Translations under genes and position numbers: made by a program
Shown here: positions 3,467-37,993 of the stretch, piece by piece
Numbering within the stretch: position 1 is the stretch's first letter
Layout: each line of letters begins with the position of its first letter
Notes under the pieces: generated by a model
What the model was told of the DNA's origin: nothing
What the model saw: only the letters and a program-made list of their open reading frames with translations
Databases searched by the model: none
Assembly (NCBI GenBank): GCA_903936705.1
Contig: CAIZWN010000071.1
Location: 51,050 to 115,049 of the forward strand
Direction: 5' to 3'
DNA length: 64,000 nt
From: an uncultured Myxococcales bacterium
Lineage (GTDB): Bacteria; Myxococcota_A; UBA9042; DTJE01

Positions 3467-6400
3467 CTACGTCAAGGGCAGGAGTTCCTGGGACCCGAAC
3501 AATCGCGTGCTGCCGGCCCATGGACCGGGGCAACGCCAAGCCACTGTGCATTGGCCGCATTCCACAGGCTTGGGTCGGGATTCGGCACGAATTGTCGACG
3601 CTGGACGAAGGCCGTCCAGTTCGGCAACCAGTTGCTGGTTCAGCGGACCTGGGGATTCAGCGGCATCCCACAGATCAGGGTCCAGGTGACACAAAACCAC
3701 GCCTTCGGTTCGCGCCTCAAGGCCAAGGCTGCGCGCAGTTCTCAAGGCGGTTCGCAGGTGGCTGGCTACGCGGCTGATGCGCACTGTCGGGGCCACGTCC
3801 AGCCGCTCCTGGTCCCCAAGCCAGACCGGCCGGGACAACGCAAATTGGACGCGAGACGCGCCTATGTCTGCCAACAGTCGAACCGTGGATTCCAGGTGCT
3901 GGCTGTTTGCGGCAAGTACGGGAATGTTGATCAGGAAAGGCAGATTCTCGGCCTTCAGACTGCGGATTCCAGCGACCGTTTGATCGAAAGCCCCAGGTGC
4001 TTGCGCAATCTTGTCGTGGATGTCGGGTTCGCTTCCGTAAATCGAGACCTCGAAGAAGGAAACTCCCTTGCGGGCCAGCAATCTGGCCAGTCCGGGATAG
4101 GCCAGAACGCGTCCGTTGGTCTGTATTTGGACGTGGTTGTAGCCCAGAACGCGGGCCTCGGTGATCAGGCGCAGTATGTCCTTGCGAATCAACGGTTCGC
4201 CACGCAGGAATACAACCTCGTTGCAGCCGTGGGCGCGTCCTTCGCGCAGTGCATTGATCGCGGCTTCCGTGTCACGTTCCGGCAGATGGGCGATGTCCCT
4301 GATGGTGCAGTGGATACACGCCGAGTTGCACCTGCTGCCCAGGCGCAGCAGCAGGCGGCCAAAACGCTGCTGGTCCGAGGCTGCCAGCACCGGTCCCCGG
4401 GGTGGTGGAGTTTCTTGCGCGGGCCGCCGCCAGCCGGTCCCTTGGACACTTGCGTTGGCGCCTGGACGCTCGACAAGCCATTCGCCGATTGCCAGGCAGT
4501 CGGCCCCGACCTGCAAAAAACTGTTCAACGCGTCCTGAGGCGAAGTTGCGATCGGTTCGTCCGCCGTGTTGAACGACGTGTTCAGGACCAGGGGGATTCC
4601 AGTGCGTCGGTGGAACTCGGAAATCGCCCGGTGGTAAAGGGGTTGCGCGTCGGCATGGACAGACTGAGGGCGCGTAGTCCCGTCGTGGTGAACGATTGCT
4701 GAAACCGCCTCGCGCCGATCCTTGCGCACCCCGGCGACGAACAACATGAATCCGTTGCCATTCGGGTTGTCGAACCAGTCGGCCTCGTGGCCGGCCAGGA
4801 TTGATGGAGCAAAGGGGCGCCAGGCCTCCCGTCCTTTTGCAACGTTCAGTCGGGGATGGAAATCCTGGCGTCCGGGATGGGCCAGAAGGCTTCGCGCCCC
4901 CAGTGCGCGTGGTCCTATCTCCAGACCGGACTGGCACCAGGCCACAACCTGGCCCGCTGCGATCCGTTCGCCTACTTCAACGGCGATGTCGGGCGCGCGT
5001 CGGGCAGGCAGGCCGAACGCATCAAGGGCCGCCTGAATCTCGGTGTCCTCCGGTTCGGGCCCCCAGCAAGCGTGGACCAGCGGCTGGAATGGAGGCTCGG
5101 AAGTAAGTTCCAGGTGTGCTACGAGCGCCGCACCTATTGCCGTGCCCCCATCGTGTGCGGCTGGTTGCACGAACATCGATTGCGGCTGAAAGTGCTGCTG
5201 GATCCGGCTGTTCATCTGGCAGTTCAAAGCCACTCCGCCGGCCAAACCCAGGTTCTGGATCACCTCGCCGCCCCGGCCCTCATCGATCAGCCGAATTATC
5301 GCTTCCTCAAGTGCCAATTGAACGCTTGCAGCCAAGGCCTTGTGGTCCTCGGTCAGCGGGTCGAAGCGTCCTCGGGACAGGTGTCCGAACGTCTTGTTGG
5401 CCTGGTTCTCGTGGATGCGGTGGCGACTGTGGGTTTCGATCGACAGGGCTGATGAAAGGTCGAAGCGTGGATCTCCCATCACGGCCAGGGCCATCGTTGA
5501 CCCCTGTCCATGGGAACCGAAGCCCAGGATTCGGCTGACGGTTTCGTAGACCCCACCGATGGACGAATCGTCCAGGGATAGGACGTCGAAGATGCGTTCC
5601 AGTCGGCCATCCCGGCCTTTGAAGAATGCGGCTGTTTCCCGGTCGCCGCGCCCGTCCACGGTCAGTATATGAGCGTCTGCCCCACCACCGAAATAGTACG
5701 CGCTTGCAGCGTGCGCCTGGTGGTGCGGAACGAATACGAACCGTCCGCTGACCAGGGTTCGAGGTGGTCTGGCTGCGTCCTCAAGGGAGTAGCTGCGGCG
5801 GAAGCGTCCAGGAATGCCGTTGACCCCGATGACGGCTACGTCGTCCAGCGTTATACCCTCGCGTTTCAGCAGCCAGTTCACCGACCGCCAGGCAAACGCC
5901 TCCTCGATCAAAACGGACATGTCATTGCATATCGTGCGGTTCGGGCGACCCGGTATCCTGAAACCGTGGTGCTTGACGCGGGACAAACGCTCCTCTTCGA
6001 CTGCACCGACCAGGCGTCCATCCTTCAGCAGCGCCGCCGAGTTTTCCTGCATCGTGGCAATCGCCAGACCAAGGCTGTAGACGGGGCGGGGGCGAACAGT
6101 ACAACGTTGCCAATCTGGCTGACGCTGCCGGATCTTTGGCGGCGCAAGTTCCGGGGAAGCGGTTCGCAGCAGTCCTGCCGGCCTTGTTCCATCGGGGGCC
6201 ATGACCTGTGCGGCCGAAGCCAGTGCAGGAGCCAAGGCACCGCGCGGGCAGGTTTCCACGCATGCCATGCACGACAGGCAGGATGTTTCATCGATCTTCA
6301 GCATCAGACCGCCGGAATCTGCACCAGTCGTGACCAACGGCGAGGGCGTGGTCGTGGTCGAACGATTCGAACCGTTCACTAGGGCAAGACATCCAGCTGG

Positions 6401-6805
6401 GCAGCTTGGCAGGCACTCGCCGCACGCAGCGCACAATGATGTTTTGTGCAACAAAATCCTGCCGGCGTGATCCCCCGGTGCAGCGCTGGTCTCGATCGCA
6501 GCTCGCCTGGGCGATTCGTGGGCCAGGCCCTCTACTGCAACGCCAAAAGGTCCGCGTCGCCATGCCGAGGCGTCAATCGATCTTTTGAATGGCGGCAATG
6601 GCCAAGGAGTACGCTTGCCAAGCCAATGCGAGGTGACCACAAGCGCGGCCCATGCGTCCTTCGAAGACAAGAACAGGCCTGTCGTTCCTGGAGTTCCGGG
6701 TGTGGGCACCGGGCCCAATATTCGCCGTATGCGCACCCGCCTGGGCGCCGGACGCAGAAGGTCGTACGCCCACAAAGAATGCCGTTCCTCGGGTGGCAGT
6801 GCCAT
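3467..6805 (-). CDS. Three-module fusion: 2x[4Fe-4S] ferredoxin + NodU/CmcH-family carbamoyltransferase + radical SAM domain with C-terminal Cys motif
   Basis: A single uninterrupted 1112-codon ORF. aa 124-186 carry two CxxCxxCxxxCP motifs (CAACGECLPSCP, CLSCMACVETCP). aa ~243-780 look like a carbamoyltransferase (VPHHQAHAASAYYFGG, LAGGVALNC, PAAHDGGTAIGAA, GPRALGARSLL, HDGTTRPQ, LNTSFN). aa ~815-1112 are radical SAM (CNSACIHC = CX3CX2C, RGEPL, QTNG) with terminal CGQCTVAWRCPG. The ATG at 6805 has GGAGG 7 nt upstream. The first ~115 aa are low complexity, so the true start could be internal. Confidence 0.8.
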   Translation of the reverse strand: MALPPEERHSLWAYDLLRPAPRRVRIRRILGPVPTPGTPGTTGLFLSSKDAWAALVVTSHWLGKRTPWPLPPFKRSIDASAWRRGPFGVAVEGLAHESPRRAAIETSAAPGDHAGRILLHKTSLCAACGECLPSCPAGCLALVNGSNRSTTTTPSPLVTTGADSGGLMLKIDETSCLSCMACVETCPRGALAPALASAAQVMAPDGTRPAGLLRTASPELAPPKIRQRQPDWQRCTVRPRPVYSLGLAIATMQENSAALLKDGRLVGAVEEERLSRVKHHGFRIPGRPNRTICNDMSVLIEEAFAWRSVNWLLKREGITLDDVAVIGVNGIPGRFRRSYSLEDAARPPRTLVSGRFVFVPHHQAHAASAYYFGGGADAHILTVDGRGDRETAAFFKGRDGRLERIFDVLSLDDSSIGGVYETVSRILGFGSHGQGSTMALAVMGDPRFDLSSALSIETHSRHRIHENQANKTFGHLSRGRFDPLTEDHKALAASVQLALEEAIIRLIDEGRGGEVIQNLGLAGGVALNCQMNSRIQQHFQPQSMFVQPAAHDGGTAIGAALVAHLELTSEPPFQPLVHACWGPEPEDTEIQAALDAFGLPARRAPDIAVEVGERIAAGQVVAWCQSGLEIGPRALGARSLLAHPGRQDFHPRLNVAKGREAWRPFAPSILAGHEADWFDNPNGNGFMLFVAGVRKDRREAVSAIVHHDGTTRPQSVHADAQPLYHRAISEFHRRTGIPLVLNTSFNTADEPIATSPQDALNSFLQVGADCLAIGEWLVERPGANASVQGTGWRRPAQETPPPRGPVLAASDQQRFGRLLLRLGSRCNSACIHCTIRDIAHLPERDTEAAINALREGRAHGCNEVVFLRGEPLIRKDILRLITEARVLGYNHVQIQTNGRVLAYPGLARLLARKGVSFFEVSIYGSEPDIHDKIAQAPGAFDQTVAGIRSLKAENLPFLINIPVLAANSQHLESTVRLLADIGASRVQFALSRPVWLGDQERLDVAPTVRISRVASHLRTALRTARSLGLEARTEGVVLCHLDPDLWDAAESPGPLNQQLVAELDGLRPASTIRAESRPKPVECGQCTVAWRCPGPWAGSTRLFGSQELLPLT

Positions 6806-6906: not shown

Positions 6907-7998
6907 GTGCCGATGAGGTCCGGGAACGACAACGGAAGACCTGGGGTGCCAACCCAGGAGGCGGACGACGTGGGAGATCGCGTCCACGTCTGCGTCGGCG
7001 CCTGGTGCAACAACAACTGTATTTTCTGCATGGAGATTGATCGCGAGGACAGGGCAGCGCGCGTGGCGTCCCAGACTGCTGACGACGTCAAACGAATGAT
7101 CGATGCAAATCGTGGCGTTCGCGAAATCCTGTTCACCAGCGGCGAGCCCACCATGAACAAGGAGTTGCCCAGATACATCGGTTGGGCCAGGGAGGCCGGC
7201 TACGAAGTCATCGGGGTCATCAGTAACGGCAGGATGTTCAGCTACGAACCCTACGTTCGGCGCCTTCTGGCGGCTGGCATGAACAACGTGATCGTCAGTA
7301 TTCATGGACACGATGCAAGGTTGCACGACGGGCTGACGCGCACCAAGGGCAGCTTTGACCAGACACTTGCCGGCCTGCGCTGCCTTTCCAGGTTGAGGGC
7401 CGAACGCGGGTTTTCAATCCAGACAAGCACTGTAATAAATCGCCGGAACATTCTGTTTCTTGGTGATATTTGCAGGCTTATGCAGACGCTTGATGCCGAT
7501 CGACATGTCTTCAACGTCATGATGCCGGATGGTCGAGGCCTGCAGCTTATCAGCCAGTTGATGCCGCGATATCTGGAAGTGCGCGATGCGTTTCTGGCGC
7601 TGGTTCCATTGCTGGCCCCTGAATTCCTTGCCAGGATTGCAGTGCTGGACGTGCCGTACTGCGCGACCGAGGGGCTCCCTGACAGCATGCGCGGGTACGT
7701 CGAGCGCTATTTCCACTACGAGCCGGCCGGCAGTTTCGAGGAAAGAGTTGCTGCGATGGGTCTGGAACCGCCCGTGGAAGGGGAGGGCGACCTGTTTCAA
7801 ACCAGTGCCATCGGTGGCGATTTGACCGCCTTCTCGCGGGTGACCCGTACCTTCCAGGAGGGTTACGTCAAGGTCAAGCGTGCCGAGTGCGCCGAGTGCC
7901 GGTTTGACGTCCTTTGTCGCGGGGCCTGGCGCGCGTATGTTGAACACTTCGGCTGGGACGAAATGGTTCCGGTGAAAACTGCCCCGTCTGGAAGTTGA
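6907..7998 (+). CDS. radical SAM protein (MoaA/PqqE-like core, C-terminal CxxCx5CxG motif)
   Basis: CNNNCIFC (CX3CX2C), SGEPTMNKE, ISNGRMF, VSIHGHDARLHDGLTRTKGSFDQTLAGL, C-terminal CAECRFDVLCRGAW. Divergent from the 3467-6805 gene across 101 nt. Start is GTG 6907 or ATG 6913. Confidence 0.85.
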   Translation: MPMRSGNDNGRPGVPTQEADDVGDRVHVCVGAWCNNNCIFCMEIDREDRAARVASQTADDVKRMIDANRGVREILFTSGEPTMNKELPRYIGWAREAGYEVIGVISNGRMFSYEPYVRRLLAAGMNNVIVSIHGHDARLHDGLTRTKGSFDQTLAGLRCLSRLRAERGFSIQTSTVINRRNILFLGDICRLMQTLDADRHVFNVMMPDGRGLQLISQLMPRYLEVRDAFLALVPLLAPEFLARIAVLDVPYCATEGLPDSMRGYVERYFHYEPAGSFEERVAAMGLEPPVEGEGDLFQTSAIGGDLTAFSRVTRTFQEGYVKVKRAECAECRFDVLCRGAWRAYVEHFGWDEMVPVKTAPSGS

Positions 7999-8037
7999 GG
8001 GACATCATTCAGCAGCGTTTGCAGTTTGAAACGATCA

Positions 8038-9892: not shown

Positions 9893-10774
9893 TTACTTCA
9901 GCGCTTCCGCGCCGCTGACGATCTCCAGCATTTCCGTGGTAATCGACGCCTGACGGGCCTTGTTGTATTGCAACGTCAGTCGCGCCAGGAGTTCGCCCGC
10001 GTTCTTTGTGGCCGACTCCATTGCCGTCATACGGGCGCCCATCTCGGCCGCCAGCGATTCCAGCACTGCGAAAAACAATCGTACGTTCACGTACATCGGC
10101 AGGATCGACGACAGGATGGCGTCGCGCGACGGTTCATAGCCGAATTCGATCCCTTCCAGCCGTGCACTGGATTCATGTGCGACCTCGTCCCGTTCGGGGA
10201 CGATTGGCAGCAGCCGTTCCACCACGACGTTCTGCGAGATCGCAGATTTGAATTCGTTGTAGACGATGTAGACCGCGTCGTGCCCGCCGTCGATGAACCG
10301 CGCCGTGATCTCGGCGCCGATCTCGCTTACCCGCTCGAAGGTAGGATTGGAGAGGACCTCCATGTACTCCTTGAAGATCGGCGAGTTGCGGCGCCGGAAG
10401 TAGTCGCGGCCCTTGCGCCCCAGCAGGGCCAGTTCCAGTTCCTCCTGGCCTCCCTCGTGGTTGCGCATGTAACGTTCGGCACGGCGGTTGATGTTGCTGT
10501 TGAAGGCGCCGCACATGCCGCGATCACTGGTGATGACCACCAGCAGCGCCTTCTTTTCCTCGCGTTCCTGCAACAGTGGGTGCAGGTCGCGGTCCGTGTG
10601 TTCCGACAGGTCCCAGATCACCTGGCGTATGCGGTTCGAGTAGGGCTTGGCCCGCAGCATGTTGTCCTGGGCGCGGCGCAACTTTGCAGCCGCGACCAGC
10701 TTCATCGCGCGGGTGATCTTCTGGGTGTTCTTGACGCTGATCAGGCGGCGCCGGATCTGCTTGAGCGTCGGCAT
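9893..10774 (-). CDS. atpG: F1 ATP synthase gamma subunit
   Basis: MPTLKQIRRRLISVKNTQKITRAMKLVAAAKLRRAQ... and C-terminal ITTEMLEIVSGAEALK. Confidence 0.97.
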   Translation of the reverse strand: MPTLKQIRRRLISVKNTQKITRAMKLVAAAKLRRAQDNMLRAKPYSNRIRQVIWDLSEHTDRDLHPLLQEREEKKALLVVITSDRGMCGAFNSNINRRAERYMRNHEGGQEELELALLGRKGRDYFRRRNSPIFKEYMEVLSNPTFERVSEIGAEITARFIDGGHDAVYIVYNEFKSAISQNVVVERLLPIVPERDEVAHESSARLEGIEFGYEPSRDAILSSILPMYVNVRLFFAVLESLAAEMGARMTAMESATKNAGELLARLTLQYNKARQASITTEMLEIVSGAEALK

Positions 10775-10859
10775 CTGGCAACCTCGACGGGGTCGTCAAC
10801 CCTCGTCCCACAGGGCATCATCATGACGGGATGGGCCATCGGGGCCCGTCCTCGCAGGC

Positions 10860-12401
10860 TCATTCGGCCTTGAAGAAACCCTTGAACTCGGTAATAGCGT
10901 CAGCCAGCGACTTCCGCAGGTCCGGAGCAATGTCCTTCTTCTCGCGGATACCGGCCAGCACCTCGGGGTGCCGGGACGCCATGAACTCCAGCATCTCGGA
11001 CTCGAACCTGCAAATGGAATCGACAGGGATGTCCATCAGGAACCCCTCGTCGGCAGTCGCGGTGAAAATCACCAGAACCTGCTGTTCGACGGACAGAGGC
11101 CGGTACTGGGCCTGCTTCAACAATTCGATCAGGCGGGCGCCCTTGTCCAACTGGCGCCGGGTGACCTTGTCAAGGTCGGTCGCGAACTGCGCGAACGCGG
11201 CCATCTCGCGGTACTGGGCCAGGTCGATGCGCAGCGTGCCAGCGACCTTCTTCATGGCCTTGATCTGGGCCGAACCGCCGACGCGCGACACCGAGATGCC
11301 GACGTTGATGGCGGGGCGAACGCCCTTATAGAAGAGGTCTGCCTCGAGATAGATCTGTCCGTCAGTAATCGAAATGACGTTGGTCGGAATGTACGCGGAA
11401 ACGTCGCCAGCCTGCGTTTCGATGATCGGCAGGGCCGTAAGCGATCCGCCGCCCAGGGCAGCGCTCATCTTTGCGGCGCGTTCCAGCAAACGCGAGTGTA
11501 GGTAGAAGACGTCGCCTGGGTACGCCTCGCGGCCCGGCGGGCGGCGCAGCAGCAGGGACATCTGGCGGTAGGCAACCGCGTGCTTGGACAGGTCGTCATA
11601 GATGATCAGCGCGTGACCGCCGTTGTCGCGATGGTACTCGCCGATCGCGGCTCCGGTGAACGGCGCCAGGAACTGCATGGGGGCGGTCTCGGATGCACCC
11701 GCGAGGATTACGGTGGTGTATTCCATCGCGCCCTGCTGCCGCAGCTTGTCGACAACCTGAGCGACGGTCGATTGCTTCTGGCCGATTGCGACGTAGATGC
11801 ACCATACCGGCGCGGAAGTCTGGTGAGTGCCCTTCTGGTTGATGATCGTGTCGATCGCGACGGCGGTCTTGCCCGTCTGCCGATCGCCGATGATCAGTTC
11901 GCGCTGGCCACGGCCAATCGGTGTCATCGAATCGATGGCCTTGATGCCCGTCTGCAGCGGTTCTTTGACGGGTTGCCGCGCAACGATGCCGGGTGCCTTC
12001 AATTCGATGCGGCGGGTTTCCTTGGATTCGATGGGGCCAAGACCGTCGATCGGCTGGCCAAGTGCGTTCAGGACGCGCCCTGCAAGGGCCGGCCCGACGG
12101 CAACTTCGGCGATGCGGCCCGACCGCTGGCACTCGTCCCCCTCGCGAATCTTGTTGACCTCGCCCAGAAGGGCGACGCCCACGTTCGTTTCCTCGAGGTT
12201 AAGGACCAGGCCCTTAACCCCGTGGGGGAAATCCAGCAGCTCGCCGGCCATGGCGCCCGACAGGCCGTGGACGCGGGCGATGCCGTCGCCGACCGTGATG
12301 ACGGTCCCCTTTTCGCGGACCTCCACCTTGCGGCCGAACTCGCGGATCTCACGCTTGAGGATCTCGGTGACTTCTTCGACGCGCAGTTCCATGAATGACA
12401 C
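10860..12401 (-). CDS. atpA: F1 ATP synthase alpha subunit
   Basis: GDRQTGKTA Walker A, alpha-subunit sequence throughout. The start may be the internal ATG at 12392 (MELRVEEV...). Confidence 0.97.
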
Positions 12402-12412
12402 CCCGCTTCCGG

Positions 12413-12961
12413 CTATCGGGACTCCAACAAACGCGAACGCAGCGATTCCAGATACGTTCGCGCGGACAGGTCGAACACTCGATCCCCGACGACGATCCGC
12501 ACGCCACCAAGCAGCGTCGGGTCGCGCTTCTCGGTAAGTACAAGCTGTTTCTTGATGCGGGCGCCGATGGCCTCTCGCAGCCTGACCAGCTGTGCGGGAG
12601 ACACTGGACCCGCCGACTCCAGCACGCCAATGGTGCGGCCGGCGCGGTCATCGCGCTCGCTGCGTATCGCGGCAACCAGAACCTCAACCCGACCCAGGCG
12701 GCGACGCGACGCCAGTAGTCCCAGGAAGGCACGGGCAGTTTCGGACAGGCCCATGGCCGTTGTGACGGCCGTCACAGCGCGGGCTGCTGCCTCGCATGGC
12801 ACCGTCGGGTCCGCCAGGATCTCCCTGAGTGCCGGCACCTTGGCCACCTGGGCCGCAAACGACTCGATCTCGGCGAAGGTACGGTCCACGGCGCCCTTTT
12901 CGTTGGCCACGTCCAGTAGTGCCGCTGCGTAACGTCGTGCGGCGATATCGGTCATGAACAC
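12413..12961 (-). CDS. atpH: F1 ATP synthase delta (OSCP) subunit
   Basis: [15 protein letters not shown]-terminus, correct size and position between the b and alpha subunits. Confidence 0.9.
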
Positions 12962-14115: not shown

Positions 14116-15195
14116 TTATCCTGGTCCCATGTTCAAAACGCTCTGGCGGGCGGCCACAGTTCCTGCCAAACGTGCCAGGGCCAGGGCTGGGAGGCCATCC
14201 GGGTCCGCGATTACGATTGGAATTCCCAGATCCCCGTTCGTTGAAACCCGTGGGTCGAGCGGGATTTCACCAAGCAGGGCAAGACCGATGCCTTCAGCCA
14301 GCTCCCTGACCCGTCCTGCGCCGAACGGGTGGTGAATCGTCCCGCAACCAGGACACGAGAACGACGCCATGTTTTCCACCAGACCCATGACCGGCACCTT
14401 GGTGATCTCGAACATCTTCACGGCACGACGTACGTCGGCAAAGGCGATGTCCTGCGGCGTCGTCACTACGACGGCGGAGGATATTGGCACCAGGCTGGCC
14501 AGCGAGATCTGGACGTCGCCGGTTCCGGGGGGCAGATCGACCACCAGGTAATCGAGATCGCCCCAGTAGACGTCTTCCAGGAACTGGGTAATTGCCTTGT
14601 GAAGCATCGGTCCGCGCCAGACCACCGCGTCTCCCGCGCCAAGAAGCAGACCCATCGAGAAGAACTTCAGCCCGTGTGCTTCGAGTGGTGCCATCAACTC
14701 CTGGTCGCCAACCTGGATCGTTTCTACGCGACCATTCGCAAGACCCAGCATCATCGGCACGCTGGGACCGTGGAGGTCGGCGTCCAGCAGTCCTACCCGC
14801 GCTCCATTCTTGGCCAGGGCTACCGCCAGATTGACGGCGACAGTGGATTTGCCCACGCCTCCTTTTCCGGCGCCAACTGCAATGACGTTGCGCACGGTCG
14901 GCAGGCGCTCGCCCTTCTCCTTGGGTCGAGACGTCACCGAAGCACCCAGTTCTACCGTTACAGAAGCAACGCCCGGGACACTCTTGACGGCAGCCTCGAC
15001 GTCTCGGCGAATCACGTGCTTCAAGGGACACGCGGGCGTCGTCAGTTGGACCTCGACGCGTACCGCATCGCCGTCAACATCGACGCTTTTCACCATGCCA
15101 AGCTTGACGATGTCCTTTCCAAGCTCGGGATCCATGACCTGGGCCAGTGCCTGCATTACTTCTTCGCGGGTTGCCATCTTGGGCTGCTCCATCAA
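14116..15195 (-). CDS. apbC: Mrp/ApbC/NBP35-family Fe-S cluster carrier ATPase
   Basis: N-terminal DUF59-like segment (VMQALAQVMDPELGKDIVKLGMV), deviant Walker A GKGGVGKSTVAVNLA, CPGC near the C-terminus. Confidence 0.92.
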   Translation of the reverse strand: MMEQPKMATREEVMQALAQVMDPELGKDIVKLGMVKSVDVDGDAVRVEVQLTTPACPLKHVIRRDVEAAVKSVPGVASVTVELGASVTSRPKEKGERLPTVRNVIAVGAGKGGVGKSTVAVNLAVALAKNGARVGLLDADLHGPSVPMMLGLANGRVETIQVGDQELMAPLEAHGLKFFSMGLLLGAGDAVVWRGPMLHKAITQFLEDVYWGDLDYLVVDLPPGTGDVQISLASLVPISSAVVVTTPQDIAFADVRRAVKMFEITKVPVMGLVENMASFSCPGCGTIHHPFGAGRVRELAEGIGLALLGEIPLDPRVSTNGDLGIPIVIADPDGLPALALARLAGTVAARQSVLNMGPG

Positions 15196-15315
15196 AGGAC
15201 TCCGGGCAGGTCCCGGCCGCAGGTATCCTGGGGCCGTGAAGGCATCCCGTCAATCTGGATTGAGGTATCGGCCGTCGAATCGACTTCTGGAAGTGCGCGT
15301 GGCAGTATCCGCCGC

Positions 15316-31923: not shown

Positions 31924-32130
31924 TCCTGCAATTGCTCCCGTAGTGGCCCCCTGCTTGACTGGCAAACAGCTCTACACCTTAACATTGCATATTCAGGCAT
32001 GCCAAAATGGCGGCAGATTTTCGTTGCGGACGCGAGGGTGGATCGCTTTCGACAAAAGATATGGGGTGTGCTTTCTTGATTGGTGGGTGAGCGGATGCTA
32101 CCCTTGGTTCGGTTCAATCAGCGGGCCTGC

Positions 32131-33084
32131 ATGGAGTTGACCTGTCTTAATTGTACTGGAGCCTTCGAGGTTGATGACGCTGCGGCCGATGGGGTCGCGG
32201 GGACGCTGGACTGCCCTCTTTGCGGAAGGGAGCAGCGTTTCGTTGCAAAGGGAGATCATCATATTGCGGAGTTCGAGCCATCCGAGGCCGCCGCTCGTCG
32301 CGAGCCGGTTTCAGACGGTTTTGGTGCAGCATTCCGCAAGCCCATGCAGGCTTTCGGGGGCCGAAGGGGAGCACGGCCCGGTGGTGCACCGGTATCTGGA
32401 TCCGCGGCACCTTCAGGCGAATCGCCGCGGATTTCGTCCACCGAGATGGCTTCCGCCAACCAGGTCTTTCCCCCGGCAGATAACTTCCGATTGAGGCCGG
32501 TTAACCTCCAGGCGGAATCGCCGATCCCGGACGAGCGGCTTGTCGAGTTAAAGCCTAACCCTGAAATACTTGATCCTGTCTCCGGATCCTGGGCTGTGAA
32601 GTCCCCAACCGGCCTGGTACTGGAGTTCCCCGAATCCGCCCTTCTGGTCAACTGGTCGGCAGTGGTCGAGAACCCGGCGCCTTACCAGGTTTCGCGTGGG
32701 GGGGAAACCTGGATGTCCCTGGAGGAATTCCTCCGTGAGACCAAGCGCGGCGTGCGGGCTACCCAGGCCTTCAGACGGACGTTGGACGAGCGGGGTTCGG
32801 GCCTGATACCCGTTCCCTTGGAGTCCGTTGCTGGCAGTTCATTCGCGCAGCCGCAGGATCCTGTTTCAATTGGCTTGCAGGGGGAACAACCTGGAGCCCC
32901 GGGGACTGTGGTTGCGACGCAAGCTTCCCAGCGAAATGCGGTTTCCACGACTGCCCAATTCACATTCAAGATTGCCACCAACAAGAAAACGGGCTTTCCG
33001 CGTTGGGCTGTTGCCCTGATCGTAGGCGGCGTGCTGGTGCTGCTGGGCAGTGGGGCAGCAGTGGCATTCCTGTTTCTGAAATGA
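32131..33084 (+). CDS. membrane-anchored protein with N-terminal MJ0042-type zinc ribbon
   Basis: MELTCLNCTGAFEV...LDCPLCGREQRF (CxxC...CxxC). A single C-terminal TM segment (WAVALIVGGVLVLLGSGAAVAFLFL). Confidence 0.6.
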   Translation: MELTCLNCTGAFEVDDAAADGVAGTLDCPLCGREQRFVAKGDHHIAEFEPSEAAARREPVSDGFGAAFRKPMQAFGGRRGARPGGAPVSGSAAPSGESPRISSTEMASANQVFPPADNFRLRPVNLQAESPIPDERLVELKPNPEILDPVSGSWAVKSPTGLVLEFPESALLVNWSAVVENPAPYQVSRGGETWMSLEEFLRETKRGVRATQAFRRTLDERGSGLIPVPLESVAGSSFAQPQDPVSIGLQGEQPGAPGTVVATQASQRNAVSTTAQFTFKIATNKKTGFPRWAVALIVGGVLVLLGSGAAVAFLFLK

Positions 33085-33099
33085 TTGCCGGCGGTAATT

Positions 33100-34743
33100 A
33101 TGGGAAAGGTCATATACATACGTACCAGTGACGGTGTGCTGCTGCGTTTCGAGGAAGCGGCGAAAGTACAGGCCTGGATTTCCAACGGTCGGCTGGGGCC
33201 GGCCGATTTGTACCTTGGTGGAGATCAGGGGTGGCATCCACTGTCCGAAATGCACGAGCCCGAGGGGGCGATGTTGCAAATGGCGCCGCCGCCTGCGTCT
33301 GGCAGGTCCGGACCGGTGGCCAAGTCGCTGGGTGCCGAAGAGCCTTCGGTCAGCCCATCCAGGAAGAAGAAACCCGAAGGCCCTGTCCGACGCGAGGCAA
33401 AGTCGCACAAGGCAGCTTCGCGACAGGTCGAGACTTCGATTGAAGCAATCCAGGCGCCTAGGGCGGAAGTGGCCGACCCGGTCGGTGTTGAGGCGATTCC
33501 GGCGGCATTGGCGAACGATGTGGTTCCGGTTGCCGAGGTCAAGCCAATTCCGGTTGCTCAGCCTGCCGGCGCCAGCAGCGTGGTAAAGACCGAACCGTCA
33601 CTTCGTCCGTTAGTGGTCGAGGCCAAGACGACTTCTCCGGAGCCGGTTGCGACTGTTCAGATGGTTGCGCAGGTTGATGTGCAGCGCGACGTGCTTGATG
33701 CGCCATCCGCCTTTTCCGTCGGGACCGAACTGGTCGGATCTGCACTGGATTCGGATTTGTGGGCGGCTGACCCCATTGGCGGGGCAGCCAGACGAAAGGC
33801 AACGCTGAAGCGCGCGATACCGTTCGCTATGCTGGTGTCCCTTGGCCTTGGCGGGCTTGTGGCCCTTGTCGTCTTGTCAAAGGAGGCCGAGATACCCGAG
33901 ATGCCCCCGGTTGCTGCGGTTTCTCCCATTCGGGAGGAGGGTGGCGCAGAGCCGGTTGCGGCACCCGTTGTCAAGGCGGCCGAGCCCGTCGAGTCGGAGC
34001 CGGCAGTTGCTCCGGTTGCCGCCAAGGTGCCGTCCCCCGATAAAGTACGGGCGATCGAATACGAACCATTTGCAGATCGAAAGAGCCCAGTGGCAGCACC
34101 TGTAGTGACGGCCCCACCGGTCAAGCCCGTCGTGCCTGACGTTGTCAGCCTTCGTGGCGGCGAAGCTGCACAGCCGGCCGTGCCAGCCGAATCCGCGGCT
34201 TCAGCCAGTCCGGTTCCGGCACGGCAGACCCCCGTACTTCGCACGGCAAGCGCAGATTCAAAGGAGGCTCGCGCCGCCTTGGTGCCACCGGCCGCTGTCC
34301 GCACGGTGCCGCCGGTTGCTGTTCGTGCTGTGCCGCCGGACTCGCGAGCGACCCCTGCTGCCAAGGAGCCTGTCGCCACCGAAGAACCGGATACCTTCGA
34401 CGGCCACATGGCTGCCGGTAATCGCGAGGTAAACCGCAATCCGGCGCTTGCGCAGGAACATTTCCAGTTGGCGGCACAGGCGCGGCCTGGACGTGTAGAG
34501 CCTGTGACTCGTCTGGGTGATTGCGCTGTCAGGATGGGCGACGTCGAGACCGCCGAGAAGCAATATCGGGCCGCCCTCAAGATAGGCGCGTCATTCTCGC
34601 CTGCGCTGCTGGGAATGGCGCGGGTTCAGAAGGCCCTGGGCAGCGCTTCCGACGCGCGGTACTACTACACCAGGTATCTCGATGTGAATCCGAAGGGCAG
34701 CCAGGCCGAAGAGGCCCAGTCCTACCTTGAACGCAACCCCTAG
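33100..34743 (+). CDS. GYF_2-like domain / TM / Pro-Ala-rich linker / C-terminal TPR protein
   Basis: N-terminus IYIRTSDGVLLRFEEAAKVQAWISNGRLGPADLYLGGDQGWHPLSEM (GYF_2/DUF4339-like). TM segment FAMLVSLGLGGLVALVVL. C-terminal TPR-like repeats (AEKQYRAALKIGASFSPALLGMARV..., ARYYYTRYLDVNP). Confidence 0.6.
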   Translation: MGKVIYIRTSDGVLLRFEEAAKVQAWISNGRLGPADLYLGGDQGWHPLSEMHEPEGAMLQMAPPPASGRSGPVAKSLGAEEPSVSPSRKKKPEGPVRREAKSHKAASRQVETSIEAIQAPRAEVADPVGVEAIPAALANDVVPVAEVKPIPVAQPAGASSVVKTEPSLRPLVVEAKTTSPEPVATVQMVAQVDVQRDVLDAPSAFSVGTELVGSALDSDLWAADPIGGAARRKATLKRAIPFAMLVSLGLGGLVALVVLSKEAEIPEMPPVAAVSPIREEGGAEPVAAPVVKAAEPVESEPAVAPVAAKVPSPDKVRAIEYEPFADRKSPVAAPVVTAPPVKPVVPDVVSLRGGEAAQPAVPAESAASASPVPARQTPVLRTASADSKEARAALVPPAAVRTVPPVAVRAVPPDSRATPAAKEPVATEEPDTFDGHMAAGNREVNRNPALAQEHFQLAAQARPGRVEPVTRLGDCAVRMGDVETAEKQYRAALKIGASFSPALLGMARVQKALGSASDARYYYTRYLDVNPKGSQAEEAQSYLERNP

Positions 34744-34749
34744 TCCAGG

Positions 34750-37062
34750 GTGCCGCTTGCCGATGCCGGGTCGCGTCGCTACCATACCGTCGTGAGTCAT
34801 CCCATTCGACGCGCACTGTTCCTGAACCCGACGCTGCACCTCCCTGCCGATTTCGTGGACTACCCCTGGTTTGCGCACCACGGCCTTTTGTTCGCCGCGG
34901 CTCGTGTTGCCAGGGCCGGATGGCAGGTCAAGCTGACCGACACCTTTGCGCTGCCGACCTCCGATCGTGTCGCGGATGGTTCTGGTTGGCGGTTGGGCGC
35001 TCCCGAGTCGGACCTGCTGGATGCAATTCCTGAAGGCCCTTTCGGTTTGGTTGTCATTGGATCGTCGTCCTTTTTAAGGCCATATCTGCCTGATCCACGC
35101 ACCGCCGCTTTCGTGGCTGCGGTCGGCAGGCGCTTTCCCGAGGCTGCCATCGTTCTTGCAGACGCCGATGTTGGAGGCATGCACGCGGTGGACTACGTGG
35201 GGACTTCGGTCATTGAAAAAATGGGTGCCCTGGACGTCGTGCTACGTCATTCTGGTGAAGATTTCTTTGGCGACCCGGATCGGCTGGTAGCATTGAAGGG
35301 TTCCCGTTCCGAGGTGCTTGATCCGCCCGGTCAGTGGGATGCACTTCCTCCATTTCCGTTGCTGGATGACCTGGACGCCGGTATGTACGGGGCTTTCCTT
35401 TGGCGCTGTTTTCGCGATGGCACGTGGTCGAACCCGTTCGGGATCGACGCATTCACCCGCCCGTTCATGACCTCCAGCGGATGTCCGCATCGCTGTGTCT
35501 TCTGCAGCAGCAACGCGGGCTGGCGGCAGACCGGTTGCAAGGTCCAGCGCGTGGTGCCACTTCATGTCCTGAAGGATTGGGCTTTCCTGGCTTCCCGCGT
35601 ACACGGCGCGCGCAAGCTGTTCATCCTTGACGAGATGGCCAACCTGCGCCACGACTTTGTAGAAATGTTGGAAATATTCGCGCAGCTCGACTTGCGCTAT
35701 GAGTTTCCGAACGGCCTGCGTGCTGACCGTTTGACCTCCGAAGCCATCGCGATGATGAAGGAGCGCATTTCACTGCTGTCGGTGTCAGCCGAGAGCGCCA
35801 GTGCCGCTGATCTGGCCGGCCCAATAGGCAAGCGCCAGGATCCGGCCCAGGTCGAACGCGTTGTTGCGGAAGCTGCCGGAATCGGTCTGCCAACGCTGGT
35901 CCATTTCGTGGTCGGGTTTCCCTGGGAGACGCCGAAATCGGTGCTGGCGACCCTTGATTTCGCCTGGCGCCTGTTCGACACCTATGGTGCGGCGCCCTCG
36001 GTCCAGTTTGCCACTCCACTGCGCGGCACGCCTCTCTTCGACATTTGCGTGCAGTCGGGCTTGATGTCTCCCGACGCCGGTACCTCGGCCGACGGCACGC
36101 TGTTTCAGCATCGTCCGGCGTTTCGGCCGCCGGCGATTCCCGAAGGCTGGTTGCAGACCGCTCACGCCATGTTTCGTCGCAAGGTTGAATCGGCATCGTC
36201 ACGCAAGGTCATCATCAACCTGACCTACGAGTGCATCAATGCGTGCGAGTTCTGCGCCGTTTCGAACCGCGAGAAACGTGACATCCCGTGGCCCCGGCTT
36301 CAGCAGTTCATCCGAGAATACAGGGCGCAAGGTCTGGATCAGATTGACCTTGACGGAGGCGAGCCAACTCTTCATCCCAACCTTGTCGACTCGATCAGAC
36401 TGGCCCGCGAGATAGGCTATAGGGAGATCAACGTCACCACCAACGGAAGGCGCCTGGCAGATTCAGTCTGGGCAAGGGAATTCCTATCCAGCGGGGTCAC
36501 CAGCGTTCTTGTTTCACTGCACGGTGAATCGTCAGGGATCCATGATGCGATAGTAGGTGTCCCTGGGGCCTTCGACGAGACCCTGGCTGGCATCAGAAAC
36601 CTGGTGACACTGCGAAAACATGGTCAGGACCTTGGGGTCAACATCACGGTATGCCGTCGCAACGTGGAACATCTTGATGCGCTTTTTGAATTGCTGGACC
36701 GCGAGCGCATAGACAAGGTGAACCTGCAATTGGTCACGCCGTTCGGATCGGCACGGCAGGATGTCGTTCCACCGGAGAGCCAGGCGACCGCAGCGGTGTG
36801 CCGGGTACTGGACCGCTTCGGAAAGTCGATGCGTTTGCACGTTGTAAACGCGCAGTTCTGCCTGTTTCCGGGTTACGAATCCTATCTTGGCGGAGACGTC
36901 GGCAAGGTGGGTCGTACGATGATCTTCGTGTCCGAAGAGAAGGTGAACCTGTTTGAATACCTGGCGGCCCGCCGCGTCCGTCGCCCGCCGTGCCTCGTCT
37001 GTCCCTGGGCTCCGGTGTGCGACGGCTTTTTCAAATTCGAGGAGGATGCCTCCGATGTCTGA
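34750..37062 (+). CDS. double radical SAM protein: B12-binding-like/class-B-type rSAM half fused to a MoaA/PqqE-like rSAM half with a C-terminal Cys motif
   Basis: Two CX3CX2C motifs: CPHRCVFC (aa 245-252, nt ~35482) and CINACEFC (aa 495-502, nt ~36232). The second half has GGEPTLHPN, TTNGRRL, VSLHGESSGIHDAIVGVPGAFDETLAGIRNL and terminal CLVCPWAPVCDG. Start is GTG 34750 (7 nt after the upstream stop) or GTG 34792. Confidence 0.8.
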   Translation: MPLADAGSRRYHTVVSHPIRRALFLNPTLHLPADFVDYPWFAHHGLLFAAARVARAGWQVKLTDTFALPTSDRVADGSGWRLGAPESDLLDAIPEGPFGLVVIGSSSFLRPYLPDPRTAAFVAAVGRRFPEAAIVLADADVGGMHAVDYVGTSVIEKMGALDVVLRHSGEDFFGDPDRLVALKGSRSEVLDPPGQWDALPPFPLLDDLDAGMYGAFLWRCFRDGTWSNPFGIDAFTRPFMTSSGCPHRCVFCSSNAGWRQTGCKVQRVVPLHVLKDWAFLASRVHGARKLFILDEMANLRHDFVEMLEIFAQLDLRYEFPNGLRADRLTSEAIAMMKERISLLSVSAESASAADLAGPIGKRQDPAQVERVVAEAAGIGLPTLVHFVVGFPWETPKSVLATLDFAWRLFDTYGAAPSVQFATPLRGTPLFDICVQSGLMSPDAGTSADGTLFQHRPAFRPPAIPEGWLQTAHAMFRRKVESASSRKVIINLTYECINACEFCAVSNREKRDIPWPRLQQFIREYRAQGLDQIDLDGGEPTLHPNLVDSIRLAREIGYREINVTTNGRRLADSVWAREFLSSGVTSVLVSLHGESSGIHDAIVGVPGAFDETLAGIRNLVTLRKHGQDLGVNITVCRRNVEHLDALFELLDRERIDKVNLQLVTPFGSARQDVVPPESQATAAVCRVLDRFGKSMRLHVVNAQFCLFPGYESYLGGDVGKVGRTMIFVSEEKVNLFEYLAARRVRRPPCLVCPWAPVCDGFFKFEEDASDV

Positions 37063-37993
37063 TCGTGCAGCCTTCGGTGTTGTTGATGACATGTCGGACG
37101 TCCTGGTGGACGTAATCCTCGGCTACGAGTGCAATGTCCAATGCGACTACTGCTCGATCACGCCGGGGATGCGACTCAGCAACATGTCGACCAAGGTGGT
37201 GATCGAGGAACTGGCCCGCGCCCGGGCGCTGGGAATGTCGCGAGTGGCGTTTGGCGGCGGCGAGCCTACCATCCGCCGGGACCTGTTCCCGCTGGTCAGA
37301 TACGCCCGGGATCGCGGCTTTGCGTCGGTCAAGGTGTCGTCGAACGGACTGATGTACTCGTACGAGGACTACGTGCGCCAGGCGATCGAGGCCGGGATCA
37401 CCGATTTTCATGTTTCGGTGATGGCGCATACGCCGGAACTCTACAGGAAGATTCTGGGGCATAAGGAAGGCCTCGAACTGGTCACTCGTGGGGTCGGCAA
37501 CCTTGTTGCGGCGGGACATGTGCCGGTCCTGGATCTGATCGTGAAGGACGACACCTACATGCACCTGTCGGATATCATCGCGTACTGGGCGGCCCTGGGC
37601 GCGCGAATGTTCCCGCTGTGGCTGGTGTCCTTGTCGGACCGGAACCGCGACAACGTGGACTCTCTTCCCCCGGTCTCGCTGATGCGGGCGTCCCTGGTTG
37701 CGGCCTTCGAGCGCGGGCGCGAACTGGGCGTCACCGTCTATTCAAGGCATATTCCTCGATGCATGTTGCGGGGGTACGAGGCTTTCTGTCGGGACCTCCG
37801 TGATGATCGCGTGCTGGTTGTCACTCCAGGATCCAGGTTCTTCCTTTGGGAGTCGGCCATCAGTCCGAACACTTACAGCCCCAGGTGCGAGTCGTGTCTG
37901 TACGTTCGACGGGAGTGCCAGGGGATCCGTCGGGACTATTTGGAACGCCACGGGGATGCCGAGGTCGTGCCCTACGAGGGTCGGGATGGATGA
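37055..37993 (+). CDS. radical SAM protein (paralog of 6907..7998)
   Basis: CNVQCDYC, GGGEPTIRRD, SSNGLMY, VSVMAH..., C-terminal CESCLYVRRECQG. ATG at 37055 overlaps the upstream stop (ATGTCTGA), with GAGGAGGA as RBS. Confidence 0.85.
   Translation: MSDRAAFGVVDDMSDVLVDVILGYECNVQCDYCSITPGMRLSNMSTKVVIEELARARALGMSRVAFGGGEPTIRRDLFPLVRYARDRGFASVKVSSNGLMYSYEDYVRQAIEAGITDFHVSVMAHTPELYRKILGHKEGLELVTRGVGNLVAAGHVPVLDLIVKDDTYMHLSDIIAYWAALGARMFPLWLVSLSDRNRDNVDSLPPVSLMRASLVAAFERGRELGVTVYSRHIPRCMLRGYEAFCRDLRDDRVLVVTPGSRFFLWESAISPNTYSPRCESCLYVRRECQGIRRDYLERHGDAEVVPYEGRDG

Follow-up and report, generated by a model that had tools for sequence, protein, structure and literature searches.

Four HxsC4-like radical SAM domains at two loci of an uncultured Myxococcales bacterium, probably the separated halves of one maturation system

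Results

The window analysed here, a 64,000-nt stretch of DNA from an uncultured Myxococcales bacterium, encodes five radical SAM (rSAM) domains in total, namely one HxsC4-like domain in each of the proteins A, B, C and D, and a class-B-like domain in the N-terminal half of C. Locus 1 consists of A and B, and locus 2 of C, D and a methyltransferase (MT), with ZnR and TPR upstream; the ~27 kb between them hold housekeeping genes (ATP synthase, complex I, FtsK). The other enzyme modules encoded are a ferredoxin-carbamoyltransferase, contained in A, and the SAM methyltransferase MT. An earlier sequence-only reading had placed four rSAM domains in two loci, accompanied by a carbamoyltransferase and a methyltransferase; all four reading frames were found where it had located them, and both accompanying enzymes have matching Pfam domains. 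The features are:

3467-6805, minus strand: A, 1112 aa; 2x[4Fe-4S] ferredoxin, NodU/CmcH-type carbamoyltransferase and HxsC4-like rSAM domains, in this order
6233-6445, minus strand: A, residues ~121-191; ferredoxin-type dicluster domain (Pfam matches)
4466-6088, minus strand: A, residues ~240-780; carbamoyltransferase domain (Pfam PF02543 and PF16861 above cut-off)
3470-4408, minus strand: A, residues ~800-1112; HxsC4-like rSAM domain with CNSACIHC, RGEP, and C1039 plus CGQCTVAWRC
6907-7998, plus strand: B, 363 aa; stand-alone HxsC4-like rSAM enzyme, divergent from A
32095-33084, plus strand: ZnR, 329 aa; zinc-ribbon protein with C-terminal membrane anchor (weak Pfam Zn_ribbon_4 match), first in the locus 2 gene string
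33100-34743, plus strand: TPR, 547 aa; membrane protein with TPR repeats at the C-terminus (Pfam TPR_19)
34750-37062, plus strand: C, two rSAM halves of different type
34750-36159, plus strand: C, N-half (C_N), residues 1-470; class-B-like rSAM, a Rossmann-like domain followed by CPHRCVFC
36163-37062, plus strand: C, C-half (C_C), residues 472-770; HxsC4-like rSAM with CINACEFC, GGEP, and C704 plus CLVCPWAPVC
37055-37993, plus strand: D, 312 aa; HxsC4-like rSAM enzyme whose start overlaps the C stop by 8 nt
37986-38918, plus strand: MT, 310 aa; class I SAM-dependent methyltransferase with Cys-rich N-terminal domain, overlapping D by 8 nt

The intergenic distances of locus 2 (16, 6, -8 and -8 nt) are those of an operon. 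Orthologues of D (60-79% identity) always come after C, and those of MT (Pfam Methyltransf_11/25/12/23) come after D in type I loci. ZnR orthologues keep their position in loci L011, L013, L014, L019, L048-50 and L054, and synteny of TPR with ZnR and MT was seen in L011; both proteins are possible accessory candidates.

Protein A matched Pfam Fer4_7/9, Carbam_trans_N (113 bits), Carbam_trans_C (193 bits) and Radical_SAM (72 bits), and its full-length architecture, 1100-1250 aa in size, is conserved in >100 homologues. Public gene callers give it 861-1112 aa; in favour of the 1112-aa start, homologues at 55-57% identity reach 99-100% query coverage. The family alignment shows the ferredoxin cysteines C125, C131, C135, C176, C179, C182 and C186 as invariant, with C128 conserved in at least 90% of the sequences. 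The rSAM CX3CX2C is lost in ~38% of long A-family members. On the NCBIfam NodU model A scored 114 bits, far under the equivalog cut-off of 1000. For B, public gene callers start at ATG 6913 (361 aa). This protein spans the full length of the HxsC4 model (NF038332; 341 bits, cut-off 500), is 45% identical to HxsC4 of Sandaracinus amylolyticus, and groups with the HxsC4 clade, to which it is sister, in 98/100 bootstraps. The solved structures closest to its AlphaFold model (pLDDT 87) are BlsE, the GDGT-MAS tetraether synthase, viperin, DesII and MoaA, with SkfB matching equally well; these alignments cover ~220-246 columns at TM ~0.5, the C-terminal region lying outside them.

The N-half of C, unrelated to the four HxsC4-like domains at the pairwise BLASTP level, matched Pfam Radical_SAM at residues 241-405, with C245, C249 and C252 invariant in the family alignment. 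AprD4 was its sequence match in the PDB (E 1.8e-5), and its best fold matches there were MgmA, AprD4, TokK, CysS and TsrM. It shares the Rossmann-like-plus-rSAM fold of class B enzymes and AprD4 but, unlike these, is fused to a second rSAM domain, of different type. The earlier description of a 'B12-like half' holds for the fold but not for the Pfam B12-binding match, which was looked for and is absent; by analogy with AprD4, this half may bind no cobalamin.

Among themselves, the four HxsC4-like domains share 24-33% identity over 140-337 residues (pairwise BLASTP, E 1e-15 to 2e-25). Pfam Radical_SAM matched all four proteins, twice in C, and when the window was searched in six-frame translation with a profile built from the family, these four domains alone were recovered. 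The five shared motifs reported earlier are all present, but four of them are generic to MoaA/SPASM-type rSAM enzymes, since E. coli MoaA and AslB, as well as Aeromonas HxsC, can be aligned at the cluster, GGEP, xTNG and VSxHG..HD..G.F..T..GI motifs too. Specific to the family are the C-terminal CxxCx5-6C, a single Cys upstream of it that is invariant, and the tail FGW-E-x-x-P, which in the alignment A, B and D possess and C lacks. The corresponding cysteines are invariant in the alignments of the A (C1039/C1083/C1086/C1092), B (C250/C326/C329/C335) and C (C704/C748/C751/C757) families. That the terminal motif resembles a partial SPASM/twitch motif, as first proposed, was borne out by its alignment with the first three cysteines of CX2CX5CX3C in AslB and HxsB. 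The generic nature of most motifs, the fifth rSAM domain in C and the His-Xaa-Ser link had escaped the sequence-only reading.

In the phylogenetic tree the four domains form four sister clades, together one HxsC4-like group, although the monophyly of the four-domain set against MoaA is statistically not supported (3/100 bootstraps). Identity is 22-26% across clades versus 40-50% inside a clade; judged by these sequence comparisons, the domains are ancient paralogues, each with its own orthologue clade, and not recent duplicates. None of the four proteins reached the cut-off of an NCBIfam model. A, B and C scored highest on HxsC4, which for D tied with MoaA; across the window proteins HxsC4 gave 68-341 bits versus 38-47 for Tes and 45-86 for HxsC. 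With no cut-off reached and four sister clades, the domains do not distribute over different, well-characterised subfamilies, and the earlier claim of a common subfamily stands in this respect.

Contiguity of the two loci in related genomes, which the sequence-only reading had suggested looking for, was found in four loci, and their components are fused in others. In L008, L015 and L039, C (54-57%), D (63-65%) and MT (50-52%) are directly followed by TM430-r310-r447-r318 and B (47-49%). In L011, whose backbone between NuoN and ThrRS is collinear with that of the window, B (64%) and A (55%) directly adjoin MT (50%)-TPR-ZnR-FtsK-ceramidase. An Archangium locus (L076) brings together, within at most 20 kb, MT, HxsD, HxsB, HxsA4, HxsC4, r310, r318, D, r626, C and a stand-alone carbamoyltransferase. 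Fusions comprise (i) C_N+C_C+D, C_C+D and D+MT+C_C, (ii) HxsC4-like rSAM::MT, in Sandaracinus, L016, L046, L072, L082 and L084, and (iii) C_N::MT, in L048/L049; two to four HxsC4-like domains occur in 86 of the 150 best relatives of D. Each of the rSAM, ferredoxin-carbamoyltransferase and MT modules has orthologues elsewhere that adjoin, or are fused to, orthologues of the others.

The neighbourhoods also pointed to His-Xaa-Ser (Hxs) systems. Of the C-family loci, 38 extend for 6 kb or more to either side; in these, HxsB and HxsD were each present in 16 and an HxS-repeat ORF in 17, the latter encoding an HxsA4-type precursor that ends in AQH[C/M]SH[G/A]S(HGS)nW; a B/HxsC4 gene lay within 10 kb in only three. 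The Sandaracinus locus carries HxsD, an HxsD relative, HxsB (542 bits), HxsA4 (115 bits) and HxsC4, and in an Elusimicrobia locus (L010) A (42%) adjoins HxsD, HxsB and an HGS-repeat::B12-rSAM fusion. HxsA, HxsB, HxsD and an HxS-repeat ORF were found nowhere in the 64-kb window; in its closest relatives, the type I loci L012-L016, L019, L044, L047, L050 and L054, HxsB, HxsD and an HxS-repeat ORF are absent within 10 kb, and some A-family clusters (L175-L177) have no Hxs gene at all.

Discussion

The recurrence of these adjacencies and fusions agrees with the original inference of a multi-step pathway or multi-subunit assembly, as opposed to unrelated housekeeping rSAM enzymes, and the two loci probably represent a single conserved, uncharacterised multi-radical-SAM maturation system that is here split into halves. 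Its nearest known counterparts are alike only in part. The HXS system (models TIGR03979/03978/03977/03976 for HxsA/B/C/D) also encodes several rSAM enzymes together, orthologues of C, D, A and B/HxsC4 cluster with HxsB, HxsD and an HxS-repeat precursor, and HxsC shares CX3CX2C, GGEP, the upstream Cys and a C-terminal CX2CX5C(C)G. However, the window proteins stay at 45-86 bits on the HxsC model (cut-off 268), Aeromonas HxsC falls outside the four-clade group, and there are 4 to at least 8 rSAM domains instead of two, with a carbamoyltransferase and a methyltransferase in addition; the precursor found alongside such enzymes is a short leader-(HGS)n-W peptide, whereas HxsA is a ~200-aa, peptidoglycan-binding protein with five repeats. 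We do not count the window as a member of the characterised HXS defence system; HxsA, HxsB and HxsD are absent from it. NCBIfam HxsC4 and HxsA4 (NF038313) describe a 'rare' Hxs variant of Myxococcota, which B resembles in model coverage, identity and tree position; yet B remains under the 500-bit cut-off, adjoins no HxsA4, HxsB or HxsD and has the Fer4-carbamoyltransferase-rSAM protein A as partner, and A, C and D form separate paralogue clades that lack a curated model.

With SPASM/twitch enzymes (anSME/AslB, PqqE, SkfB, BlsE, MoaA) the domains share the rSAM core, BlsE, SkfB and MoaA being among the best folds, and their C-terminal CX2CX5C can be aligned with CX2CX5CX3C, the SPASM motif of AslB/HxsB. 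They differ in having four conserved cysteines instead of seven, in the family-specific FGW-E-x-x-P tail and in that Pfam SPASM was undetected. Protein A has both Pfam domains of the NodU/CmcH/TobZ O-carbamoyltransferases and HypF; here, unlike in these, the carbamoyltransferase sits between 2x[4Fe-4S] ferredoxin and rSAM domains.

It is conceivable, though unlikely, that A-B and C-D-MT are two independent pathways in which related enzymes act on different substrates, their proximity elsewhere reflecting shared ancestry or a shared regulon neighbourhood. The 27 kb of housekeeping operons between the loci would fit this, as would the lack of B from 35 of the 38 well-flanked C loci (most also without a carbamoyltransferase), the presence in L011 of A-B and MT without C or D, that of C_N::MT without C_C or D in L048/L049, and the other rSAM types in A-family clusters L175-L177. 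Against it stand three kinds of adjacency (L008-type, L011, and the Archangium/Myxococcales superclusters L068/L070/L076), the numerous fusions between paralogues, and the fact that MT accompanies A-B in L011 but C-D in the window.

We consider it rather improbable that the substrate is a small molecule or membrane lipid (cofactor, glycolipid, membrane-spanning lipid) and no ribosomal peptide. The usual substrates of NodU/CmcH/TobZ-type carbamoyltransferases are sugars and antibiotics, those of BlsE, GDGT-MAS, viperin, DesII and MoaA are not peptides, and the window lacks a precursor gene, all of which favour such a substrate; for a lipid speak GDPD, PAP2 and an FAD oxidase flanking L010, LPG_synthase_TM and GT2 flanking L176, and CDP-OH_P_transf flanking L177. 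These lipid genes, however, differ from locus to locus and belong to another strand or another operon, SkfB, the equally good match to B, is a RiPP maturase, and the Tes scores fall below those of HxsC4. Moreover, recurrent neighbours of C-D, and of A in L010, are HxsB (a SPASM peptide maturase), HxsD and HGS-repeat precursors.

HxsABCD has been shown to act against phage, with HxsB and HxsC maturing its effector (Nat Commun 2026, PMC13128918). With this precedent, and with relatives of the window proteins in HxsA4-type clusters, a similar role, in which an rSAM-matured HxsA blocks phage DNA entry, may be envisaged, but we regard it as very unlikely. Besides the missing HxsA, HxsB and HxsD, PADLOC returned on the window only generic viperin-level rSAM matches, the genes lie in conserved housekeeping synteny (FtsK, ATP synthase, ThrRS), vertically shared with relatives, and in no variable island, the short HxsA4 lacks the peptidoglycan-binding domain of HxsA, and Pseudomonadota hold 99.7% of HXS systems. 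Hardly any credence is left for unrelated housekeeping enzymes alike through superfamily-wide motifs, for which the four generic motifs and the 3/100 bootstraps against MoaA would speak, given the lack of a characterised family at cut-off, the common Cys pattern and tail, and the adjacency and fusion repeated across genomes.

Under the preferred reading of one system in two halves, each HxsC4-like domain would hold the SAM-cleaving [4Fe-4S] cluster on CX3CX2C and probably one auxiliary [4Fe-4S] cluster on four conserved cysteines, namely the upstream Cys and CX2CX5C, a truncated SPASM motif. With its 5'-deoxyadenosyl radical each would catalyse its own step on one protein or peptide substrate common to all. 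Tailoring, such as methylation at C or O and O-carbamoylation of Ser, would fall to the class-B-like domain, MT and the ATP-dependent carbamoyltransferase, and the N-terminal dicluster ferredoxin domain of A would supply electrons. The precursor, HxsB and HxsD being absent from the window, the substrate would therefore be encoded elsewhere in the genome or have changed. Because the genes are elsewhere adjacent, fused, or beside a His-Gly-Ser repeat peptide, they point to one uncharacterised, HXS-related multi-enzyme maturation pathway, and we interpret the window as carrying, in a dispersed variant, a "type 4" Hxs-like system of multi-rSAM maturation that is so far undescribed.

Organization of the two loci

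The two loci holding the radical SAM (rSAM) genes, A and B (locus 1) and the run from ZnR to MT (locus 2), lie in a stretch with a G+C content of 62%, whose proteins have MAGs of Myxococcota/"Deltaproteobacteria" as their closest named relatives.

Genes of the two loci and of a toxin-antitoxin pair (coordinates, strand, product)
3467-6805, minus: A, 1112 aa, 2x[4Fe-4S] ferredoxin, NodU/CmcH-type carbamoyltransferase and C-terminal radical SAM domain (Pfam)
6907-7998, divergent from A: B, 363 aa, stand-alone radical SAM protein
32095-33084, plus: ZnR, zinc-ribbon membrane protein
33100-34743, plus: TPR, TPR membrane protein
34750-37062, plus: C, 770 aa
37055-37993, plus: D, 312 aa
37986-38918, plus: MT, class I methyltransferase
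43503-43745, plus: MazE/AbrB-type antitoxin, 80 aa
43742-44149, plus: PIN-domain toxin, 135 aa, 4-nt overlap with the antitoxin gene

The divergent A/B pair is flanked by a thiolase gene and the F1Fo ATP synthase operon, the neighbours of B being A and the ATP synthase epsilon gene. An exact public-database match for B was found for its ATG-start form and none for the GTG-start form. Locus 2 is a compact string of five genes (spacings, from ZnR to MT, of 16, 6, -8 and -8 nt) bordered by FtsK and, on the opposite strand, by a cNMP-binding T2SSE ATPase. The latter (38929-40998, minus strand), a type II/IV secretion ATPase whose N-terminal part has cyclic-nucleotide-binding and MshEN domains, is convergent with MT and sits where the related locus L011 has A-B. 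Genes for ATP synthase, a Mrp/ParA protein, a NifS-like protein, complex I subunits, a TSP3-repeat protein and a ceramidase-like product occupy the interval between the loci.

Two mechanical ORFs proved to be overcalled: the NifS-like aminotransferase (14329-16461, plus strand) has 381 aa in public gene calls versus 710 aa in the ORF, and the ORF at 25-2025 (plus strand) is a FadB-like 3-hydroxyacyl-CoA dehydrogenase/enoyl-CoA hydratase truncated by the window start, with 799 aa on the full contig. Beyond locus 2, the typical VapBC-like toxin-antitoxin pair (43503-44149, plus strand) lies between a sulfatase gene and a collagen-like gene. The 1135-aa product of the latter (44305-47712, minus strand) combines nine repeats of DUF7151 with five regions of collagen triple-helix repeats (Pfam scores of 364 and 110 bits), and the codon-position composition of the gene is unusual (first-position GC 0.55 versus 0.6-0.7 in neighbours). 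The sulfatase (41137-43341, plus strand) carries an N-terminal MopE-like metal-binding motif; as anSME models are outside the best 25 NCBIfam matches of each of A, B, C and D, none of the four was retained as its anaerobic maturase, which is thus not obvious in the window.

Four ancient paralogues with a family-specific cysteine motif

The motif strings by which the sequence-only reading had assigned one signature to four rSAM domains (those of A, B and D, and C_C, the C-terminal half of C) were all found in the translations. Pairwise BLASTP related these domains at 24-33% identity (E 1e-15 to 2e-25), and a family profile search of the window recovered exactly four. All four proteins show CX3CX2C and score above 29.5 bits with PF04055, C doing so twice; since C thus carries a second, N-terminal rSAM domain (C_N), the window holds five in total.

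Alignment with E. coli MoaA and AslB and with Aeromonas HxsB and HxsC, by which motif specificity was judged, divided the five motifs quoted as a family signature: the terminal CxxCx5-6C, matching the first three Cys of the AslB SPASM motif CX2CX5CX3C, stood as specific, whereas the cluster, GGEP, xTNG and "VSxHG..HD..G.F..T..GI" motifs are generic to the superfamily branch. Two further features are family-specific, namely a single conserved upstream Cys and a tail, FGW-E-x-x-P, present in A, B, D, HxsC4 and other paralogues and absent from MoaA, AslB, HxsB and HxsC in this alignment. Four C-terminal Cys are invariant in the family alignments of A (C1039, C1083, C1086, C1092), B (C250, C326, C329, C335) and C (C704, C748, C751, C757), and would fit one auxiliary [4Fe-4S] cluster. 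Pfam SPASM was undetected in A, B, C and D. The AlphaFold model of B (pLDDT 87) matched BlsE, GDGT-MAS, SkfB, viperin, DesII and MoaA over the core only, with a TM of about 0.5.

None of A, B, C and D reached an NCBIfam cut-off, and the four domains are not spread over different well-characterised subfamilies. HxsC4 (NF038332; cut-off 500 bits) was the top NCBIfam model for A (90 bits), B (341 bits, full length) and C (106 bits), while D gave a tie between HxsC4 (68 bits) and archaeal MoaA (69 bits); a literature search on HxsC4 gave nothing. In a neighbour-joining (NJ) tree, computed with four outgroups for 95 non-redundant domains that came from fetched loci and search hits, the window's domains were each placed in a clade of their own, and every one of these four clades also contains orthologues from other taxa (bootstraps: A 76, B with HxsC4 98, C_C 64, D 80), and additional paralogue types (r310/r345, r318, r447/r626 and r617) were recognized. 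Mean identity was 40-50% within clades, 22-26% between clades, and 14-22% to MoaA, AslB, HxsB and canonical HxsC. On these sequence grounds, the separate clades and low between-clade identity indicate that the four copies are ancient paralogues within a single, loosely defined HxsC4-like group, and speak against recent duplication. Monophyly of the HxsC4-like set relative to MoaA was unsupported in this simple NJ tree (3/100 bootstraps; 22/100 with MoaA included).

Partner domains

C_N (cluster motif CPHRCVFC) has no BLAST-level relation to the four HxsC4-like domains. The N-half of the AlphaFold model of C (pLDDT 86.7) matches the class-B rSAM enzymes MgmA, AprD4, TokK, CysS and TsrM, and Pfam gave no match in C_N to the B12-binding domain PF02310, even at E 0.05.

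In A, both Carbam_trans_N (113 bits) and Carbam_trans_C (193 bits) exceed the Pfam cut-offs, and the score with the NodU equivalog (114 bits) is below its cut-off of 1000. A metagenome scan with the A-family alignment, whose patterns were drawn from the carbamoyltransferase core, found nothing beyond generic NodU-like genes (30-36% identity, residues 240-800) and is uninformative on the fusion; a literature search for carbamoyltransferase-rSAM fusions gave nothing relevant. Among the A-family homologues (P0241-P0360), 38 of the 99 long Fer4-carbamoyltransferase-rSAM proteins (about 38%; for example P0256, P0263 and P0317) are devoid of the CX3CX2C SAM-cluster motif and retain the C-terminal Cys (C861, C1039, CX2CX5C). 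Their radical SAM domains are apparently of a "pseudo-rSAM" kind, in which the putative auxiliary-cluster site survives; the window's A retains CX3CX2C.

The N-terminal 130 residues of MT (window 37986-38400) contain a Cys-rich segment, CRSCPDLATCCACY, similar to the CxxCx5-6C of the rSAM domains and also kept in a Sandaracinus rSAM::MT fusion, whose role could lie in binding a metal or cluster, or in docking.

Relation to the His-Xaa-Ser systems

The B homologue of Sandaracinus amylolyticus is a bona fide HxsC4, encoded, in a cluster around 7.44-7.46 Mb of CP070225, directly after HxsD, an HxsD-related protein, HxsB (542 bits) and the short leader-(HGS)n precursor HxsA4 (115 bits); in contrast, B of the window is without an HxsA4 neighbour. 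In the His-Xaa-Ser (HXS) antiphage system, HxsA is matured by HxsB and HxsC, together with HxsD: it is processed at its N-terminus and acquires an as yet undefined +8 Da modification on SHRSS. The system is confined at 99.7% to Pseudomonadota (PMC13128918).

A six-frame scan of the window for HxsA showed tracts of three or more HxS repeats nowhere, the single double H.SH.S being in a non-coding frame. With three HxsB proteins, tblastn gave only a weak generic rSAM match on D, and with HxsD and HxsD-related proteins from three loci it gave no match. Against HxsC (TIGR03977, equivalog cut-off 267.9 bits), A, B, C and D scored 72, 70, 86 and 45 bits, respectively. The window thus fails on HxsA, HxsB, the HxsC cut-off and HxsD, as it does on both the 500-bit cut-off and the HxsA4 adjacency of NF038332, and is therefore not to be filed as an HXS system, from which it also differs in having many more rSAM domains, plus putative methyl and carbamoyl tailoring.

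A scan of GTDB species genomes for the C family yielded 151 relatives, of which 80 loci were fetched for neighbourhood analysis; the family is widespread, with no fewer than 151 carrier genomes at species level across Myxococcota, Binatia, Thermodesulfobacteriota, Acidobacteriota and other groups. Three neighbourhoods could be distinguished: (i) type I, that of the window, with C-D-MT, often after FtsK-ZnR-TPR; (ii) type II, in Binatia, Thermodesulfobacteriota and Polyangiaceae MAGs, with r617-r626-r345-C-D-HxsD-HxsDrel-HxsB and an HxS-repeat ORF a few kb off; and (iii) type III, where C is solitary, accompanied by r626, or within the superclusters L068, L070 and L076. For the 38 C loci flanked by 6 kb or more to the left and right, D was present in 24, MT in 10, HxsB in 16, HxsD in 16 and an HxS-repeat ORF in 17. 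The precursors in C-family loci are leader peptides ending …AQH[C/M]SH[G/A]S(HGS)nW. Type I loci other than the window showed no HxS repeat, HxsB or HxsD within 10 kb, with the exception of L017.

In L010, an Elusimicrobia locus, an A orthologue (42%) precedes HxsD, HxsB and an (HGS)n::B12-binding rSAM fusion. This 803-aa protein (17270-19681 of L010, MAG JACPFR010000005) has about 30 His-Gly-Ser repeats N-terminal to a B12-binding radical SAM domain, placing substrate-like repeats and a maturase-like enzyme on a single polypeptide. Homology of C_N to its B12-rSAM part was considered and rejected, the similarity being at the level of the cluster motif only (E 0.012).

Joining of the two loci in other genomes

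The two loci, about which the sequence-only reading had asked whether they are contiguous in relatives, are so in two arrangements, C-D-MT with B and A-B with ZnR-TPR-MT. The first occurs in the Myxococcota MAG loci L015 and L039 and in L008, from a JGI metagenome, where C-D-MT is directly followed by five opposite-strand genes encoding a membrane protein, then r310, r447, r318 and an orthologue of B (47-49% identity). The membrane protein at this junction (L008 14134-15426, minus strand; orthologues in L015 and L039) is polytopic and of 430 aa, and, given its GDAKLFG motif and a faint match to type IV leader peptidases (A24; E 0.028), could be a leader peptidase or exporter of the pathway. 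The second arrangement is that of L011 (identity to the window 55% for A, 64% for B and 61% for FtsK), with the gene order NuoN-…-ceramidase-FtsK-ZnR-TPR-MT-A-B-…-ThrRS-MT280. Its backbone is collinear with the window, A-B standing in place of T2SSE-sulfatase-… and C-D being missing, so that a rearrangement separates the two.

The superclusters L068, L070 and L076, from Archangium and Myxococcales MAGs, combine HxsC4, r310, r318, D and C. HxsB and HxsD are both present in L068 and L076, whereas L070 has HxsB without HxsD; r626 is found in L070 and L076, r447 in L068, and L076 additionally carries MT and a stand-alone carbamoyltransferase. Among the best 150 50%-identity representatives found with D, 86 contain 2-4 HxsC4-like domains, and the fusions include at least eight of C_N+C_C+D, at least eight of C_C+D and one of D+MT+C_C. 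rSAM::MT fusions occur in Sandaracinus, L016, L046, L072, L082 and L084. In L048 and L049 (Myxococcales MAGs, about 10001-12470), C_N is joined directly to MT, C_C and D being absent; the C_N-MT pair is thus able to persist without HxsC4-like domains.

From contiguity, L011, the superclusters and the fusions in other genomes, we conclude that the window's two loci are linked. Together with the placement of the four domains in four clades of the HxsC4-like group, this upholds the earlier interpretation of a multi-step pathway or multi-subunit assembly on both of its own tests.

Interpretation and significance

We read the window system as a new, dispersed variant of Hxs-type multi-rSAM maturation. 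Since the substrate is missing from the window, what we say of mechanism is inferential; most likely, several rSAM enzymes would act on a repeat-containing protein or peptide, in an HXS-like manner. More tentatively, the HxsC4-like paralogues (A-D, r310, r318, r345, r447, r617 and r626), the carbamoyltransferase and MT may constitute an undescribed "type 4" Hxs super-system that would turn a leader-(His-Gly-Ser)n peptide, by means of up to eight or more radical SAM domains, into a RiPP or cofactor of a new class, bearing extensive cross-linking, methylation and carbamoylation. In the window lineage, either the precursor would have moved in trans or the enzymes would have been redirected to a new substrate such as the co-transcribed, membrane-anchored ZnR/TPR proteins.

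Weighed beside the joined loci of other genomes, the assignment of the window's genes to two separate pathways seems rather doubtful. A lipid or small-molecule substrate, to which the structural neighbours and the lipid genes next to the A-family clusters of L010, L176 and L177 would point, we regard as unlikely. A role in defence is improbable in view of the conserved housekeeping synteny and of PADLOC v2, which gave only weak generic pVip (viperin-level) rSAM-core matches (22-57 bits) with a library that lacks HXS and left Aeromonas HxsC unmatched too.

Radical SAM maturases perform some of the most unusual chemistry carried out on peptides. For the dispersed Hxs-type system, the only characterised relative is HXS, recently shown to mature an antiphage effector (PMC13128918). 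The family is modular, with 2-4 domains per protein, up to about eight rSAM domains per cluster, and a recruited carbamoyltransferase and methyltransferase; its curated models are limited to HxsC4. With orthologue groups, invariant Cys, a precursor (…AQHCSHGS(HGS)nW) and culturable carriers (Sandaracinus amylolyticus, Chondromyces apiculatus DSM 436 and Nannocystis punicea FL3, Archangium being represented so far by MAGs only) now defined, this chemistry becomes directly testable.
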